Of a stretch of DNA of 64,000 nucleotides, positions 11,130 to 31,937 are shown piece after piece (position 1 is the first letter of the stretch; every line of letters starts with the position of its first letter). The notes under the pieces were generated by a model. That model searched no databases. It was given only the letters and a program-made list of their open reading frames with translations, and was not told where the DNA came from. The stretch covers positions 28,083 through 92,082 of the forward strand of contig CAMDTO010000001.1 of NCBI GenBank assembly GCA_945907765.1, written 5' to 3'. The DNA comes from Thermoflexus hugenholtzii JAD2 (lineage in GTDB: Bacteria; Chloroflexota; UBA11872; UBA12225). The position numbers and the translations under genes are program-made.

Positions 11130-12653
11130 CTACTGGCTTGCCGTCACCCCGTTGATCGCGGGATAGAGGCCGATATAACGCCGGAACAGTTCGTCGTAGA
11201 TTTCGCGGCTGGCAGGGTCGGGGTGGACGGTTTGCCCAAGGTGGACCATTGCGTCACCTGCGACAGACAGGTCCGGGAAGTCGCCAACCCCGACGGCACC
11301 GAGCATGGCGCTGCCAAGCACGCCATTCTCAGTCGTTGCGCATGGGCGGAAGTCGAGGCCTGTCAGGTCGGCCTTTATCTGGTTCCATAGGTGGGCACGT
11401 GCCCCGCCCCCGGCTACCCGGACCTCTCGGATTGGTGTGTGCCCGTATTGGACCGCGTACTCCAGAATGTGTCGCACTGAACAAGCGACACCTTCAAGGA
11501 CCGCCCGAATGAGGTGCCCGGGTTCGCTACTGATCGAGAGACCAGTGAACGCACCACGGGCATGGGGGTTCCAGATGGGTGCGCGCTCACCCTCGAGATA
11601 GGGAAGGAAGGTCAGTCCTCCGGCGCCGGGCTCAACCGTTGCCGCCAGGGCGAGGGCGGCCGCTTGCCGTGCGTCCGGAGAGGTGTCTTCCACAGGAACG
11701 TTCACGGTGCGCATGATCCAGCCAAGGGATGCGCCACTTGCTTGGGTCGGCCCGTACAGGATCCATCGGCCGGTATCGACAATTCGGGCCGTCATCAGGG
11801 GGCCGGTATCTTGCGCCTCGGATGGGACCGTGACCCCAGTCACCTCGGATGTGCCGGAGACGTCACACGCCGTTCCGGGATGACCGAAGGCGCCGGATCC
11901 AAGCATGGCGGCCATCGCATCGGACCACCCGCACACGACCCGTAGCCCCGTTGGCAGTCCGGTGGCACGTGCGACGTCGGCGGTGATCGTCCCGACGACG
12001 TCGCGTGGTGTGCCGGCGACCGGGACAGACTCTGGAGGGAGATCCCCCAGATCACGCATCCCGCTGATCGGATGCAGGGTTCCTTGGTGGACCAGACCCT
12101 TTGCCGACCAGGCATCGGTGCGCATTGTTCCGGTCAGGACGAAGTGCACGTAGTCCTTGGGCAGAAGGATGTGCGCCAAGCGGGCAATCGTGTCGGGTTC
12201 GTGCCGTGCAAGCCACCGGCCTCGGGCGAGCGGCCACGACGCATCGACCGGCCACCGCATGCCGAGGAGGTCATCCAGTGCGACCGATCCCGCAGCTTTC
12301 GACAACGCGGCGGCTTCGGCCGCGGCCCTGGTGTCCTGCCAAAGGATTGCCGGCCGGATTGGCTTGTGGTCGCGGTCCAGAAGGACGAGTGTTGGTGCCT
12401 GACCTGAACTGCACAGGGACGCAATCCGCGATGGGTCAGCGTGGGGCGAAGCGACGAGTTCACGGATGCACTGGATGGCCGCTGATGCGTAGTCTGCGGG
12501 ATCTTGTTCCGACCACCCTGGACGGGGCCTCGACACGCCATACGACACGCTCGCAGTCGCGAGGAATGTGCCGGTTGCATCGATTAACGCACCCTTCAGG
12601 GAGGTCGTGCCGACGTCCAGACCAATGTACTGAGGGGTGGTATTTGCGCTCAC
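11130..12653 (-). CDS. FGGY-family carbohydrate kinase (xylulokinase-like)
   Basis: The N-terminus 'YIGLDVGTTSLKGALID...GWSEQDP' and FGGY C-terminal motifs are present. It is 507 aa. Confidence 0.8.
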   Translation of the reverse strand: MSANTTPQYIGLDVGTTSLKGALIDATGTFLATASVSYGVSRPRPGWSEQDPADYASAAIQCIRELVASPHADPSRIASLCSSGQAPTLVLLDRDHKPIRPAILWQDTRAAAEAAALSKAAGSVALDDLLGMRWPVDASWPLARGRWLARHEPDTIARLAHILLPKDYVHFVLTGTMRTDAWSAKGLVHQGTLHPISGMRDLGDLPPESVPVAGTPRDVVGTITADVARATGLPTGLRVVCGWSDAMAAMLGSGAFGHPGTACDVSGTSEVTGVTVPSEAQDTGPLMTARIVDTGRWILYGPTQASGASLGWIMRTVNVPVEDTSPDARQAAALALAATVEPGAGGLTFLPYLEGERAPIWNPHARGAFTGLSISSEPGHLIRAVLEGVACSVRHILEYAVQYGHTPIREVRVAGGGARAHLWNQIKADLTGLDFRPCATTENGVLGSAMLGAVGVGDFPDLSVAGDAMVHLGQTVHPDPASREIYDELFRRYIGLYPAINGVTASQ

Positions 12654-27634: not shown

Positions 27635-28204
27635 ATGCGGGTGATTGCGGGTGAATGTGGTGGCCTTGCGTTGGTTGCCCCCCGGAGTTCGCAGACACGT
27701 CCCACCACTGACAAGGTGAAAGGGGCGATTTTCGGGATGCTTGGCGACCGGGGTGCGTTCGGTCGCGTCCTCGATATATTTGCTGGTTGCGGTGGCCTCG
27801 GGATTGAGGCGCTCAGCCGTGGTGCCGACTGGTGCGACTTTGTTGACCGCGCGCCAGATGCGGTGGAGGCAATTTTGAAGAACCTTGCCCACACAAGGCT
27901 GGCTTCCCAGGCACGCGTCCACCGTTCAGAGGTCGCCCGATTTCTTTCGTTGGTGCGCGAGCCTTTCGACCTGATCCTCTGTGACCCACCCTATGGGCTG
28001 GAAGAGTTACCCGGCATTTTGGCGCGCGTCGCGCATCCGGCCATCACCCGCGATGGGGCGACCGTTGTTGTTGAATATGGCCGACGGGACGAGGTCCCCG
28101 TGGTCATCGGACGATTGCGTCGCGACCGGGTTCGCGTCCATGGTGATACGGCGGTAGCAATCTACGACGTGGTTGATGGGCCACTGCCGGACCGAGCGGA
28201 GTAG
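27635..28204 (+). CDS. rsmD: 16S rRNA m2G966 methyltransferase
   Basis: 'VLDIFAGCGGLGIEALSRGA' and 'LILCDPPY' motifs. Confidence 0.85.
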   Translation: MRVIAGECGGLALVAPRSSQTRPTTDKVKGAIFGMLGDRGAFGRVLDIFAGCGGLGIEALSRGADWCDFVDRAPDAVEAILKNLAHTRLASQARVHRSEVARFLSLVREPFDLILCDPPYGLEELPGILARVAHPAITRDGATVVVEYGRRDEVPVVIGRLRRDRVRVHGDTAVAIYDVVDGPLPDRAE

Positions 28205-28402
28205 GTCGGGGCGGTTTCCACGGCAGTGTGGAGGATATTGCGAAGTCTCACGAAATGCACCAACGATCCGTTCCACCCTCCATCATGGCGGGCTGGCCAA
28301 GCCAGTCGTGCAACGTCGCCATCCCATTTGCGTTCGGTTATTGGGTGACCATAAAGCGGCCGCGCCTTTTCCGGGCATTTTCGTCCGGTTGGAGGAGTGT
28401 GG

Positions 28403-31117
28403 TTGAGACCCACCCTGGCGAAGGGACACTCGGTGAGCGATTCGACCTCCTGGGCATACGCGCTGCTCGTGGTGCTGCTTGCTGCACCCGTGTTGGCTGC
28501 CGTTGTCGTGCTTGTGACGATGGTCGGACAGTCGGAGACGAACCGTGTGCCAGTGCAGGCGAGTGGAAGTGGTGGGCAGTCGGTTGCTCAGGACGTCCGC
28601 CCGGTAATCGTGATGCAACGCGTCTCCCGAGCGTCGGCGCGAAGGCCCGGTTCCGCGGCTGATCCGGTTGGCAGGCAGGTCACATCGCCTGCAACCCTCC
28701 ATGAACGGATTGACCGATTCACTTCACGGCGACGCGAGCCGACGCGTAGACGCCGTGGTGATTCACCTGCTGGCGATACGGACCCGGTGCCGTACCCGAG
28801 TTCCTCGTGGCCGGCGGTCGCGCCGCCACTGATCGAAACCCCTGGGGTCACCCGGCCGGATTCCCACGCGTCCGGTGACCTCGGGCGTGACGCATCGACC
28901 CCGAGGTCCTGGGGTCAGTGGGTCCGCGCCCTTGTTGAGCTGACCATCCCGCCACGTCAGGTAAGGCCACCAGTTGGTGCGAGACAGGTGGCAGTGCGGG
29001 CAATTGTGGCGGAGACCCCGGAGATACCGGCTCGGGCCGAGGGCGGGTATGTGCTCCCACCAGTCCGTGTACGGGCCGGACTTGCAGGAATTGATGGGTC
29101 GCCACGCCTCCCGCTCATGGTCTCTGCGATTGCGGAAATCGAGGCTGGTCCCGACGTATCGCGTCACGACGGGGCAGGTCCAATGCCATCTAAAGCGGAG
29201 ATTGTTGCTCCCGACGTGGACGGGTTCGAATTGGGTTTAATTCCAGCGGTGATCGATCAGTCGACTCAGATCCAAATGTCGTTCCTGCTGGCCGAGCCTG
29301 ACGGTGGCGACGGGTTCGTGATTTCAGAGCCTTCTCTTCACGACCTAACTCGCTTGGCGCCGGTTTCGGAGGTGGCGGCGTCTTTCGAGTGGGATGTGGC
29401 TCAGGACGTGGAATCCACCGGTTTCGAGGCGGAACCAGTTGCAGATGGCCCAGATATTGTGATCGCGGTTCCATCTGAACTGGTGTTAGGGGCACCGGTT
29501 GTCGCGTTTGAACTGGTCGAAGTTGAACCGGCCAACGCGGTACCGGCGCCAGATTTGGCCTTCGAACCCGTCATGGCCGACGTCGAGATAGCACTGGTCT
29601 CCGAGGATGACCTGGTGGAGGTGGACACGACGGTCGCCATGCCCGAACCAGTGTTGGAAATCGAACCCGTCTTGGCCGAAGTAAAGATAGCACTGGTCGC
29701 CGAGGGGGACCCGGTTCAAGTGGAACCCGACGTAGGGATTGCAGAGCCTGAGATGGCGATTGAGCCCGTCACGGCGTACGTGGTGGAGATACCGATAGAC
29801 GTGGTGGAGGTGGTCGTGGCGGAGACCAACGTCGCAATGGCACTGACAGACATGACCATCTCACCGGTCATGGCTGATGTTGACGAAGCACTGTTATCCG
29901 AGGGTGACCCGGTTCAAGTGGAGCTTGTCTACGCGGTGCCGATGCCTGTAATGGCAAAAGCACCAGTCATGGCCGACTTCGAGGAAGCACCGGTTGTCGC
30001 GTCTGAACTGGTCGAAGTTGAACCGGTTAACGCGATGCCGGCGCCAGTCATGGCAAATGAACCCGTCATGGCTGATGTTGAGGAAGCACTGTTAGCCAAG
30101 GGTGGCCCGGTTCAAGTGGAGCTTGTCTACGCGATGCCGATGCCTGTGATGGCAAACGATCCAGTCATGGCCGAAGTCGAGGAAGCACCGGTTGTCGCGT
30201 CTGGACTGGTCGAAGTTGAACCGGTCCACGCGATGCCGGCGCCAGTCATGGCAATCGAACCCGTCACGGTTGACGTCGAGGACGCACTGGTAGCCCAGGC
30301 TGACCCATTCGAAATGGAACCTGGCGTAGCGATTCCGGAGCCAGAGATGGCGATTCGGCCCGTCACGACGTACCTGGTGGAGATACCGATGGACGTAGTG
30401 GAGGTGGTCGTGGCGGAAACCAACGTCGCGATGGCACTGCCAGACATGGCTATCTCACCAATCATGGCTGACGTCGGCGAAGCACCGGCTGTCGATTCAG
30501 CTTCGGAGGAGGAGGAACCCGTTTACGCGACGCCGGTGCAAGTGTTGCCGGTCGAACCCGTCGTGGCCGAAGTCGCGGAAGTTTCTGCGTCCGACCAAGA
30601 GATTGGTGAGGATCACGTCGCGCTTGGTTTTGAGAACCAACATGTCGTGGATGCCTGGGCCGCGATGACGCAGATTGAAACGGTCGATGTGGCGACGCCG
30701 TCAGTGGAGGGACTCGAACTTGAACCGTTCGTGGATGTTCCTGTCGCGGCCCTCGCCTCCGAGGTGGACGGCATCGGGACGGAAGCACTGGTGAAACCCG
30801 CAGAGGACGTGTCTCCAGTGGCAACAGGTCCAGCTGATCAGTCTGGCTCCGAACAAAGCCATATGGGGACTGGCGTGCTCGGGACAGGGCAGTCAGCCAT
30901 CGATGAACCTGACCTCGCGATTAATGGGTTGGACTGCGACGAGGAAGTTGGGCCCGCGATGGCGGAGGCAACGTTCACTCTACCTCCGGCACCTCCAGTC
31001 GAGGAACCTCAGCCAGCGTGGATGCCCCTGCCACGGTCTCCAAAGTTCCGCTGGGTTCGGGTTGCGATGCAGGCGACTGAGGTAACCGTACCTCGCGATG
31101 TCTTTGCTGGACAGTAG
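28403..31117 (+). CDS. membrane-anchored, highly acidic tandem-repeat protein (E/V/P/A/M-rich), unknown function
   Basis: A ~905 aa ORF with GC3-rich codons. GGAGGA lies at 28391-28396, with a TTG start at 28403 (a GTG at 28397 is also possible). There is an N-terminal hydrophobic anchor 'WAYALLVVLLAAPVLAAVVVLVTMV'. A ~1 kb internal region consists of 66 aa repeats. Confidence 0.6.
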   Translation: MRPTLAKGHSVSDSTSWAYALLVVLLAAPVLAAVVVLVTMVGQSETNRVPVQASGSGGQSVAQDVRPVIVMQRVSRASARRPGSAADPVGRQVTSPATLHERIDRFTSRRREPTRRRRGDSPAGDTDPVPYPSSSWPAVAPPLIETPGVTRPDSHASGDLGRDASTPRSWGQWVRALVELTIPPRQVRPPVGARQVAVRAIVAETPEIPARAEGGYVLPPVRVRAGLAGIDGSPRLPLMVSAIAEIEAGPDVSRHDGAGPMPSKAEIVAPDVDGFELGLIPAVIDQSTQIQMSFLLAEPDGGDGFVISEPSLHDLTRLAPVSEVAASFEWDVAQDVESTGFEAEPVADGPDIVIAVPSELVLGAPVVAFELVEVEPANAVPAPDLAFEPVMADVEIALVSEDDLVEVDTTVAMPEPVLEIEPVLAEVKIALVAEGDPVQVEPDVGIAEPEMAIEPVTAYVVEIPIDVVEVVVAETNVAMALTDMTISPVMADVDEALLSEGDPVQVELVYAVPMPVMAKAPVMADFEEAPVVASELVEVEPVNAMPAPVMANEPVMADVEEALLAKGGPVQVELVYAMPMPVMANDPVMAEVEEAPVVASGLVEVEPVHAMPAPVMAIEPVTVDVEDALVAQADPFEMEPGVAIPEPEMAIRPVTTYLVEIPMDVVEVVVAETNVAMALPDMAISPIMADVGEAPAVDSASEEEEPVYATPVQVLPVEPVVAEVAEVSASDQEIGEDHVALGFENQHVVDAWAAMTQIETVDVATPSVEGLELEPFVDVPVAALASEVDGIGTEALVKPAEDVSPVATGPADQSGSEQSHMGTGVLGTGQSAIDEPDLAINGLDCDEEVGPAMAEATFTLPPAPPVEEPQPAWMPLPRSPKFRWVRVAMQATEVTVPRDVFAGQ
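29490..30490 (+). repeat. nested in-frame tandem repeats: 198 bp unit and 600 bp higher-order unit
   Basis: 'gcaccggttgtcgcg(t/c)(t/c)tg(a/g)actggtcgaagttgaaccgg' recurs at 29492, 29987 and 30185. A ~110 bp block 'gtggtggagataccgat(a/g)gacgt(g/a)gtggaggtggtcgtggcgga' occurs at ~29773 and ~30373. Confidence 0.75.
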
Positions 31118-31165
31118 TCTCATCCCCAACGCCCGTGCTGGGGGACTGAAGGTGACGGTTCCGCA

Positions 31166-31195
31166 TTCCGAGTAATAGATTTTGCGGCGTATAAT
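31166..31195 (+). promoter_or_regulatory. putative sigma70-type promoter for coaD (-35 TTCCGA, 18 nt spacer, -10 TATAAT)
   Basis: Read directly: ttccga-gtaatagattttgcggcg-tataat, ending 9 nt before the coaD GTG. Confidence 0.3.
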
Positions 31196-31203
31196 CCACG
31201 CTT

Positions 31204-31806
31204 GTGATCGATGGTCTGCCATCCCGACGCATCGCGCTGTTTCCGGCCACATTCGACCCGCCGACCCACGGGCACATGGAAACGGTGTTGCGGGGTGCAA
31301 GGCTTTTCGATGAGGTTGTGGTTGCGGTGTATGCCGAACCGTCAAAGCAAACGCTGTTCAGCGCGACTGAGCGGCTCGAGCTTGTTCAGGAAGCCGTTCG
31401 TGATCTGGGTGTGACAAATGTCCGTGTCAGGTCATACAACCGAAGACTGACGGCAGATCTGGCACGTGAAGAGGGGGCTTGCGCGCTTATTCGCGGATTG
31501 CGTGCCGTTTCGGATTTCGACTATGAACTTCAGCTCGCGCACATGAACAAGGCGCTTGCGCCGGACGTCGAAACGGTGGTTCTTCTGGCGAGTGCTCGGT
31601 ACAGCTTTCTGAGTTCGACCATAGTCCGCGAAGTTGCGCGGCTCGGTGGCGATGTGGCGCCATGGGTGCCAAGGATTGTGGCCGAACGGCTCGGCGAACG
31701 GTTTGGGCATCCTCATTCACCCGTGAACCTCCCGGAGGTCCTGGATGCGGAGGTAGGTTCAGACCGGATTGCCGGGTTCATGTCCACTGATGATCGTGTG
31801 CGTTAG
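31204..31806 (+). CDS. coaD: phosphopantetheine adenylyltransferase
   Basis: 'IALFPATFDPPTHGH' is the (H/T)xGH motif and '...SSTIVRE' is present. There is a ~40 aa C-terminal extension. Confidence 0.85.
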   Translation: MIDGLPSRRIALFPATFDPPTHGHMETVLRGARLFDEVVVAVYAEPSKQTLFSATERLELVQEAVRDLGVTNVRVRSYNRRLTADLAREEGACALIRGLRAVSDFDYELQLAHMNKALAPDVETVVLLASARYSFLSSTIVREVARLGGDVAPWVPRIVAERLGERFGHPHSPVNLPEVLDAEVGSDRIAGFMSTDDRVR

Positions 31807-31937
31807 TACTGGGGATAACATGGTCTATCGGGTCACCGTTTTTCATGCAGTCGGTGACTGCATGAATGATGACGTGGCTTGGTAGGAGCGGCGACCGTTG
31901 TTCGTGCCAATGGGTGCGAGTGGCCGGACGCCAGGAG

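Follow-up and report, generated by a model that had tools for sequence, protein, structure and literature searches.

A lineage-restricted gene for a membrane-anchored acidic repeat protein at the rsmD-coaD junction of freshwater TK10 Chloroflexota

Why should a long gene of no recognizable family lie between rsmD and coaD, two genes that are adjacent in many bacteria? This question is raised by a stretch of 64,000 nucleotides (nt) from contig CAMDTO010000001.1 (positions 28,083 to 92,082 of the forward strand; assembly GCA_945907765.1), hereafter referred to as the window. Here, the gap between rsmD and coaD is filled by an open reading frame (ORF) on the plus strand, listed as starting from a TTG codon at position 28403 and ending with the stop at 31117. 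At 904 amino acids (aa), or 906 aa were an alternative upstream GTG at 28397 used, this ORF matches the roughly 905-aa ORF described in an original prediction that was made from the sequence of the window. In what follows, the ORF and its product are termed the orphan gene and the orphan protein.

Distribution and selection of the orphan gene

Among 5.8 billion protein clusters, 38 intact homologs of the orphan protein were detected, 651-970 aa in length and 42-100% identical to it, all of which are unnamed or annotated as 'hypothetical protein [Chloroflexi bacterium]'. Whereas frame disruption between strains would speak against the translation assumed in the original prediction, the reading frame was intact in all 38 homologs and no disrupted allele was seen. 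The ratio of nonsynonymous to synonymous substitution rates (dN/dS; Nei-Gojobori), calculated for the window against two relatives (L003 and L004), was 0.36-0.41 for the gene as a whole, 0.10-0.26 for the single transmembrane (TM) helix near the N-terminus, 0.09-0.16 for the basic linker that follows, the lowest value of the gene, 0.25-0.42 for a mid module, 0.51-0.56 for a repeat array and 0.43-0.48 for the C-terminal region, as compared with 0.06-0.09 for the neighboring recG, rsmD, coaD and yceD. Likewise, orphan proteins are 53-60% identical between genomes where neighboring proteins reach 86-97%. The orphan gene is thus fast-evolving yet constrained, with the juxtamembrane 'linker' being its most constrained part. 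As shown, at the level of sequence comparison, by the 38 intact homologs, by dN/dS values below 1 and by insertions and deletions (indels) that come as whole repeat units, this is a real gene under purifying selection.

The lineage involved is the freshwater TK10 cluster, 'Ca. Umbricyclops', a globally distributed lake hypolimnion group of deep-branching, hypolimnion-specific, ovoid and reportedly monoderm Chloroflexota, described without cultured members (PMC6169038) and still uncultured (PMC12381374). The orphan gene was found between rsmD and coaD in L001-L004, L085 and L088, as well as in two further contigs, and after rsmD also in L005 (CH-Oct18-156), L006 (a Lake Biwa hypolimnion 'TK10' bin), L007 (Baikal-deep-G104) and L009 (UBA2235). 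The features by which the family is defined, namely the TM pattern SWxYALLVVLLAxPVLAAVVVLV, the motif VPYPSSSWPA, the mid module, the 33-aa repeats, the C-terminal core PQPAWMPLPRSPKFRWVRVAMQATEV and the position between rsmD and coaD, were all encountered.

When 1.84 billion representative proteins were searched exhaustively with a HMMER profile, 10 matches were obtained, corresponding to the orphan family, N-terminal fragments from a sister lineage (see below), one frameshifted fragment and two spurious matches to the repeats; no homologs from outside the lineage were detected in this set. The lineage specificity originally proposed is therefore borne out, and the gene appears to be restricted to the TK10 group. 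The match to a coiled-coil protein in the same search was rejected as having arisen via the repeats. Similarly, a single marginal match (E 8e-4) to a protein with tetratricopeptide repeats (TPR), which are helix-turn-helix units of 34 aa, could be traced to the string 'VELEPANA'; no Pfam TPR was seen at E<=10, and the AlphaFold2 (AF2) model contained no helices in the repeats.

To what extent the gene can be called an insertion was considered in a survey of the junction among GTDB species representatives, based on alignment of rsmD, in which the loci from outside TK10 came mostly from Bacillota and in some cases from Chloroflexota. In 70 of 74 such loci, coaD lies no more than 300 nt after rsmD, with a distance of 333 nt being seen in a 71st, such that the two genes are indeed normally adjacent. 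The order in L011, for instance, is rsmD-coaD-o179-yceD. Described relative to other bacteria, the predicted insertion is hence real, with 70-71 of the 74 junctions being uninterrupted. It does not hold, however, within the lineage, as all TK10 relatives examined carry the gene at this position. Because of this shared position, and because GC content and codon-position GC (GC1/2/3) of the gene match those of its neighbors, the orphan gene represents an old, fixed, lineage-level gain rather than a recent insertion.

Two further loci, L008 and L010, are more distant, with rsmD and recG being only 66 and 60% identical, respectively, to those of the window. Both present a gene directly after rsmD, the N-terminus of which is homologous to that of the orphan protein (BLASTP, 40% identity over 134 aa, E 1e-4). 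The motifs SWxxALLxxLLAAPVxAAVxVLVxMVxQ, LH[DE]RI and VPYPSxSW[PQ]A are common to the two. The N-terminal tail in L008 and L010, M[AG]DAGSW, is without positive charge, and the repeat is an unrelated 18-nt array, present in at least 10-15 copies up to the end of the contig and encoding (EEARLA)n. Given that L008 and L010 retain the TM and linker motifs but carry (EEARLA)n, the repeat sequence is replaceable, while the anchor is not. A full-length ortholog of the EEARLA type was not recovered in protein or metagenome-contig searches, which returned only 578-nt chimeric fragments (P0041 and P0042) or genes of the window type. It was also noted that the record for L008 (CAMBEO010000005.1; 'MAG: Thermoflexus hugenholtzii JAD2 isolate TH-11nov19-82') looks to be mislabelled as to organism, given the TK10-type gene after rsmD.

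Architecture of the orphan protein and its locus

The orphan protein has an isoelectric point (pI) of 4.05 and a net charge of about -115, and is composed of 16% Val, 13.5% Ala, 11% Pro, 10% Glu and 6% Asp. Its parts, together with other features of the locus, are listed in Table 1. The N-terminal membrane anchor and Pro/Arg-rich linker of the original prediction found support in hydropathy, in an AF2 helix and in composition. The TM helix is nearly identical in the L008/L010 ortholog, and a degenerate DNA pattern designed for it matched only the orphan family among 241 million records of JGI metagenomes; such conservation would appear to far exceed the needs of a passive anchor. In the juxtamembrane segment, Arg accounts for 14.3% and Pro for 12.6% of residues, the basic cluster begins some 30 residues past the TM helix, and the motifs LHERIDRFTSRRR, VPYPSSSWPA and RSWxQWVRALVE are conserved. 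This segment also contains the tetrapeptide RGDS at residues 118-121 (28754-28765; RRRRGDSPAG), with RGD appearing in 31 of the 38 homologs. The tetrapeptide is probably incidental, the host being a free-living lake bacterium.

Past the basic segment, acidic residues (D+E) outnumber basic ones (K+R) by 22 to 6 in residues 216-345, by 78 to 4 in residues 346-730 and by 31 to 6 in residues 731-904. Of the columns that are invariant in the 38-sequence alignment, most fall within the mid module. Near the C-terminus, the motif with the core PQPAWMPLPRSPKFRWVRVAMQATEV is conserved at a level of at least 90% across the same sequences, and its segment FRWVRVAMQATE presents a helical hydrophobic moment of 0.59-0.68. 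The sole Cys of the protein is residue 845.

The repeat array has a period of 99 nt in the DNA, with 11 copies being detected at 29437-30581 and with a super-period of 198 nt at 89% identity. In the protein, the 11-12 units follow one another in perfect register over residues ~345/378-740, with the consensus vAMP.PVMAIEPVMADVeEAlv...dpVEVEpv and with super-periods of 66 and 198 aa; certain pairs of units are identical at 27 of 33 positions. Pro makes up about 12% of the repeats and falls at set positions within each unit. The 66-aa consensus presented earlier fits the units starting at residues 510 and 543, as well as those at 576 and 609. The estimate of about 600 aa of repeats, by contrast, has to be corrected, with the array spanning some 385 aa and the whole acidic part some 690 aa. 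As for the suggestion that repeat number might vary among relatives, array lengths of 243-448 aa were found in the homologs, always with the 33-aa period. Moreover, the genes of the window and of L085 are near-identical (proportions of nonsynonymous and synonymous differences, pN 0.002 and pS 0.004), with one exceeding the other by exactly 198 nt, i.e., two units, pointing to repeat-number polymorphism among near-identical strains.

The array also has consequences for assembly. The contigs of L005, L006, L007 and L009 stop within it, 1.3-1.7 kb past rsmD, while those of L008 and L010 stop within their own repeat, 1.0-1.3 kb past rsmD. These repeats systematically break short-read metagenome-assembled genomes (MAGs), with the gene being under-represented and frequently annotated as 'partial'. 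Among the database fragments, P0041, P0042, P0043 and P0045 look chimeric or frameshifted: P0043 includes the insert 'PHHHHPIAPLSIRSYVASS', P0041 and P0045 bear unrelated tails and P0042 bears an unrelated head. Most likely, these are assembly errors in or near the repeats and not biological variants.

No match to the orphan protein was obtained in searches of Pfam (strict, or lenient at E<=10), NCBIfam or PDB profiles, and regular-expression scans detected no LPXTG, lipobox, Tat, PEP-CTERM or GlyGly-CTERM motif. Together with the HMMER search, these results agree with the earlier statement that the protein offers no catalytic, sorting or described-family signature. As such, it constitutes a new family, of a known general kind yet unrelated to the systems compared below. 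The AF2 model of the full-length protein, based on the 38-sequence alignment, had a mean predicted local distance difference test (pLDDT) score of 29 and a predicted template modeling (pTM) score of 0.18. It comprised the TM helix, short helices at residues 99-109, 170-181, 744-756 and 880-892 and weak strands at 222-320, with the repeats being modeled as coil and residues 346-730 being devoid of secondary structure. When modeled alone, the mid module gave a pLDDT of 40 and weak strands only, such that neither model provided a confident fold. Apart from the TM helix, only the C-terminal motif reached a pLDDT above 50.

In the wider locus, the order of genes is a DAK2/FakA-like (yloV-like) gene, recG, rsmD, the orphan gene, coaD, a coiled-coil ORF of 155-179 aa, yceD, rpmF, fabD and fabG. 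The Firmicutes-like synteny previously recognized (yloV-recG-rsmD ... coaD-yceD-rpmF) is accordingly supported, as regards gene order, by the ORF list and domain matches. Window rsmD is 87-97% identical to that of TK10 relatives, the corresponding values for coaD being 94-95%. No paralogs of the orphan gene were found within the window. The orphan gene is probably constitutively co-expressed.

The TTG at 28403 is most likely the true start of the coding sequence (CDS), considering the GGAGGA sequence upstream, that homologs begin with MRPTLAKG and that the start column is valid in relatives, being TTG, GTG or ATG in each case. Further upstream, an alignment of eight loci revealed that the first 90 nt or so 3' of the rsmD stop are highly variable, unlike the block of about 78 nt that follows at 28303-28380 (CAAGCCAGTCGTGCAACGTCGCCATCCCATTTGCGTTCGGTTATTGGGTGACCATAAAGCGGCCGCGCCTTTTCC), which is almost unchanged. 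This block is possibly a promoter, an operator or a leader peculiar to the lineage. It presented no Rfam match, sigma-70 consensus, covariation or conserved reading frame, such that none of the four corresponding assignments (Rfam family, sigma-70 promoter, RNA structure with covarying positions, conserved upstream ORF) was supported.

The charged coiled-coil ORF between coaD and yceD is found at 31866/31938-32405 in the window, at 9616-10083 in L001 and at about 11252-11683 in L011. It occurs in a distant Chloroflexota genome as well, at 37% identity, and has no Pfam match. Its similarity to DivIVA/Wag31 in NCBIfam is weak and sub-threshold (E 4.8e-5; 23 bits, as compared with a cut-off of 260).

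Table 1. Positions of the orphan gene, of the parts of its product and of flanking features (window coordinates, unless a contig is named; TRF, Tandem Repeats Finder)
Feature	Coordinates	Strand	Basis
rsmD (16S rRNA m2G966 methyltransferase), upstream flank	27635..28204	+	PF03602, E 1.4e-42
Near-invariant non-coding block, candidate promoter/operator/leader	28303..28380	+	8-locus alignment
Shine-Dalgarno GGAGGA	28391..28396	+	read from sequence; 6 nt 5' of TTG 28403
Orphan protein CDS, 904 aa + stop	28403..31117	+	ORF list, conserved start column, 38 intact homologs, dN/dS 0.36-0.41
Single TM helix WAYALLVVLLAAPVLAAVVVLVTM, residues 17-40	28451..28522	+	Kyte-Doolittle 19-mer maximum 3.1; AF2 helix 14-42
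Basic Arg/Pro-rich juxtamembrane segment, residues 41-215	28523..29047	+	pI 11.5, 25 K+R, lowest dN/dS
Acidic mid module, residues 216-345 (LPPVRVRAGL...IAEIEAG...FELxLxP...SFLxA)	29048..29437	+	conserved columns
Acidic Val/Ala/Glu/Pro-rich repeats, 11-12 x 33 aa	29438..30622	+	TRF, repeat families, protein register
Conserved acidic C-terminal region, residues 741-904 (DAWxAMTQxETV, LELEPFVDVP)	30623..31114	+	invariant/near-invariant columns
Near-invariant C-terminal motif EEPQPAWMPLPRSPKFRWVRVAMQATEV, residues 867-894, with cationic amphipathic segment	31001..31084	+	at least 90% conserved
coaD (phosphopantetheine adenylyltransferase), downstream flank	31204..31806	+	PF01467, E 3.7e-22
(EEARLA)n array, L008 contig	11262-11536
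(EEARLA)n array, L010 contig	11657-11838

Predicted topology and possible roles

What might such a protein do? The reading tentatively favored here, while still short of an even chance, is that of a membrane-anchored tether with its N-terminus inside and its C-terminus outside the cell (N-in/C-out), in which a polyanionic spacer of variable length separates the membrane from a conserved distal site. The TM helix and the basic module (residues 1-215) would form the constrained functional core, docking the protein at the membrane and probably also onto a partner residing there. The 33-aa repeats, Val/Glu-rich and punctuated by Pro, may serve as an extended, non-globular polyanionic spacer or brush, the length of which would shift in whole units by unequal recombination. 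A non-globular state is suggested by the low pLDDT values obtained for the full-length protein and for the mid module, by the modeling of the repeats as coil and by the fixed positions of their Pro residues. The conservation of the C-terminal motif similarly suggests that PQPAWMPLPRSPKFRWVRVAMQATEV could act as a distal interaction site, the distance of which from the membrane would vary. With the C-terminus outside, the protein would form an envelope-facing stalk in a monoderm cell, arranged much like TolA or TonB, albeit without homology.

The preference for this orientation relies on several considerations. In the window type, R2 and K7 lie in the N-terminal tail, and in all three lineages the TM helix is followed by a Gly/Ser-rich stretch of 15-30 residues that is neutral or acidic. 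Bacterial proteins with a single N-terminal span are mostly N-in/C-out, the N-out orientation being rare among single-span proteins. Finally, population-level repeat polymorphism and fast evolution, as seen here for the repeats, are typical of exposed proteins.

Several observations nonetheless weigh against the C-out spacer. Arg is very abundant in the 175 aa past the TM helix (pI 11.5), in broad agreement with a cytoplasmic location under the positive-inside rule, and the N-terminal tail in L008 and L010 is apparently only 6 residues long, acidic and lacking K or R, as would suit N-out. The repeats, moreover, are rich in Val (21%) and Ala (15%), and a charge-hydropathy plot places them on its 'ordered' side. 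The intrinsic disorder originally suggested is consequently in keeping with the AF2 scores but not with this plot, and the low pLDDT may stem from the shallow alignment available for an orphan instead of from disorder. Lastly, since the L008 and L010 contigs end inside the repeat, the comparison of orthologs extends to the N-terminus only.

The same observations on charge lend themselves to the opposite orientation, judged here to be the less probable of the two and, on balance, unlikely. Like ZipA, the protein would be a cytoplasmic tether (N-out/C-in), with a short, translocated N-terminal tail, the Arg-rich segment lying along the inner face of the membrane, the acidic repeats serving as flexible linker and the C-terminal amphipathic segment binding either the membrane or a partner in the cytoplasm, cytoskeletal or otherwise. 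In addition to the 25 K+R found in the 175 aa past the TM helix and the M[AG]DAGSW tail of the sister lineage, devoid of positive charge, this possibility draws on the juxtamembrane segment being under the strongest purifying selection, on the co-directional placement of the gene within a housekeeping cluster and on FRWVRVAMQATE, the hydrophobic moment of which is comparable to those of the membrane-targeting helices of MinD, FtsA and MreB. On the other hand, the residues immediately past the TM helix are not basic in any of the three lineages, R2 and K7 are present in the window-type tail, N-out single-span proteins are rare in bacteria, and neither ZipA_C nor another known binding domain was detected with Pfam.

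A more doubtful proposal is that the repeats fold into a regular beta-rich fiber or solenoid, yielding a structured fibril or adhesin-like stalk at the cell surface, which AlphaFold would be unable to model for want of homologs. Runs in which hydrophobic and acidic residues alternate (VEVEPV, VQVELVYA, VVEVVVAE), the high Val content, a 33-aa register that is strict over 11 units and across species and the position in the charge-hydropathy plot, on the ordered side, are all compatible with such a fold. Still, not even low-confidence secondary structure was predicted by AF2 in residues 346-730, the four to five Pro in each 33-aa unit would interrupt strands, and the net charge (about -0.19 per residue) disfavors packing unless cations are bound. 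The helical-type EEARLA repeat of the sister lineage further argues against the need for a specific fold.

The two remaining explanations are effectively refuted. A recent horizontal or mobile-element insertion, for which the otherwise uninterrupted junction could be cited, is highly improbable, given that every TK10 relative has the gene at this site and the sister lineage has a divergent version of it, that the GC values of the gene are like those of its neighbors, that flanking repeats of note are absent and that the HMMER search offered no candidate donor homologs elsewhere. Least probable of all is a spurious or decaying ORF, i.e., a GC-rich repetitive intergenic expansion staying open by chance: despite there being no known domain, dN/dS values well above those of the neighbors and many long ORFs on both strands, as GC-rich DNA yields, more than 38 variants at only 42-55% identity all remain intact over some 900 codons, dN/dS is below 1 in every region and lowest in the linker, indels come in multiples of 99 nt, the start codon is kept and is preceded in the window by a Shine-Dalgarno sequence, and GC1/2/3 resemble those of neighboring genes.

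A bolder reading, distinctly less probable than the C-out spacer, can also be contemplated, whereby a gene that arose and became fixed inside a housekeeping junction ranking among the most conserved of bacteria would act as a modular 'molecular ruler'. Only the anchor and the basic module would then be conserved, under selection as strong as that on the housekeeping neighbors. The spacer, in turn, would be exchanged outright from one sister lineage to the other (33-aa acidic Pro/Val units as opposed to EEARLA hexads) and would vary in length within populations, thereby setting a distance in the envelope or the cell cortex of these abundant, uncultured Chloroflexota of deep lakes.

Significance and comparison with known systems

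Orphan repeat proteins are common, and the function of this one is not assignable computationally, both of which temper its significance. In its favor, the gene is fixed at a highly conserved junction, its anchor is constrained to the degree of housekeeping genes and its repeat module is swappable. A conserved gene without a homolog in approximately 15 billion predicted proteins may be a lineage-defining piece of TK10 cell biology, and illustrates, in a clear-cut case from nature, how a membrane anchor under constraint can be joined to a repeat spacer that is freely exchanged and polymorphic in length. In practical terms, knowing that the array breaks contigs (six GTDB representative contigs) is useful for the finishing of MAGs, while the array itself can serve as a strain-resolving marker.

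In its layout, the orphan protein is reminiscent of TolA and TonB, the energy-transducing proteins that span the envelope of diderm bacteria, in which one TM helix at about residues 15-40 is likewise followed by a long, extended spacer and a conserved C-terminal end, in other words an anchor, a spacer and a distal site. The TonB spacer is Pro-rich, whereas that of TolA is a long Ala/Glu/Lys helix resembling the EEARLA array of the sister lineage. Nonetheless, no match to TonB_C (PF03544), TolA domain III or a TolA profile was obtained (Pfam at E<=10 on the C-terminal 200 aa; NCBIfam; PDB), and no link to exbB/exbD or TolQR was seen among the annotated neighbors. Unlike in TonB, where a conserved Ser/His (SHLS) face couples the TM helix to ExbB/ExbD, the TM helix contains no His in residues 17-40 and no SHLS-type motif. 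Pro accounts for 11-13% of the linker and repeats, in which no (EP)n or (KP)n tracts occur. The spacer, moreover, is strongly acidic and built of 33-aa units, and the host is reportedly monoderm (PMC6169038).

ZipA, which tethers FtsZ to the membrane in gamma-proteobacteria, offers a similar succession of N-terminal TM helix, charged segment, long Pro-rich flexible linker and C-terminal binding element. The orphan protein differs in lacking ZipA_C (Pfam, NCBIfam, PDB), in that its basic cluster lies some 30 residues past the TM helix and not immediately after it, and in having a linker that is repetitive and acidic rather than P/Q-rich.

Other likenesses concern the repeats. As with the fast-evolving tandem repeats of Gram-positive surface proteins (alpha-C/Rib, SD-repeat), repeat number is polymorphic between near-identical strains, but the orphan protein is anchored by an N-terminal TM helix and contains no LPXTG, lipobox, cell-wall-binding domain or folded Ig-like repeat. 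The gas-vesicle protein GvpC also has a period of 33 aa, yet Pfam reported no match for the orphan protein, and the Pro-rich units would be incompatible with the helical repeats of GvpC. Finally, the PEVK region of titin and PopZ-type Pro/Glu-rich linkers, which act as entropic springs and acidic disordered spacers, similarly consist of P/E/V/A modules that are predicted to be non-globular and vary in length by whole modules. They come from unrelated organisms and sequences, however, whereas the orphan protein is almost Lys-free and membrane-anchored.

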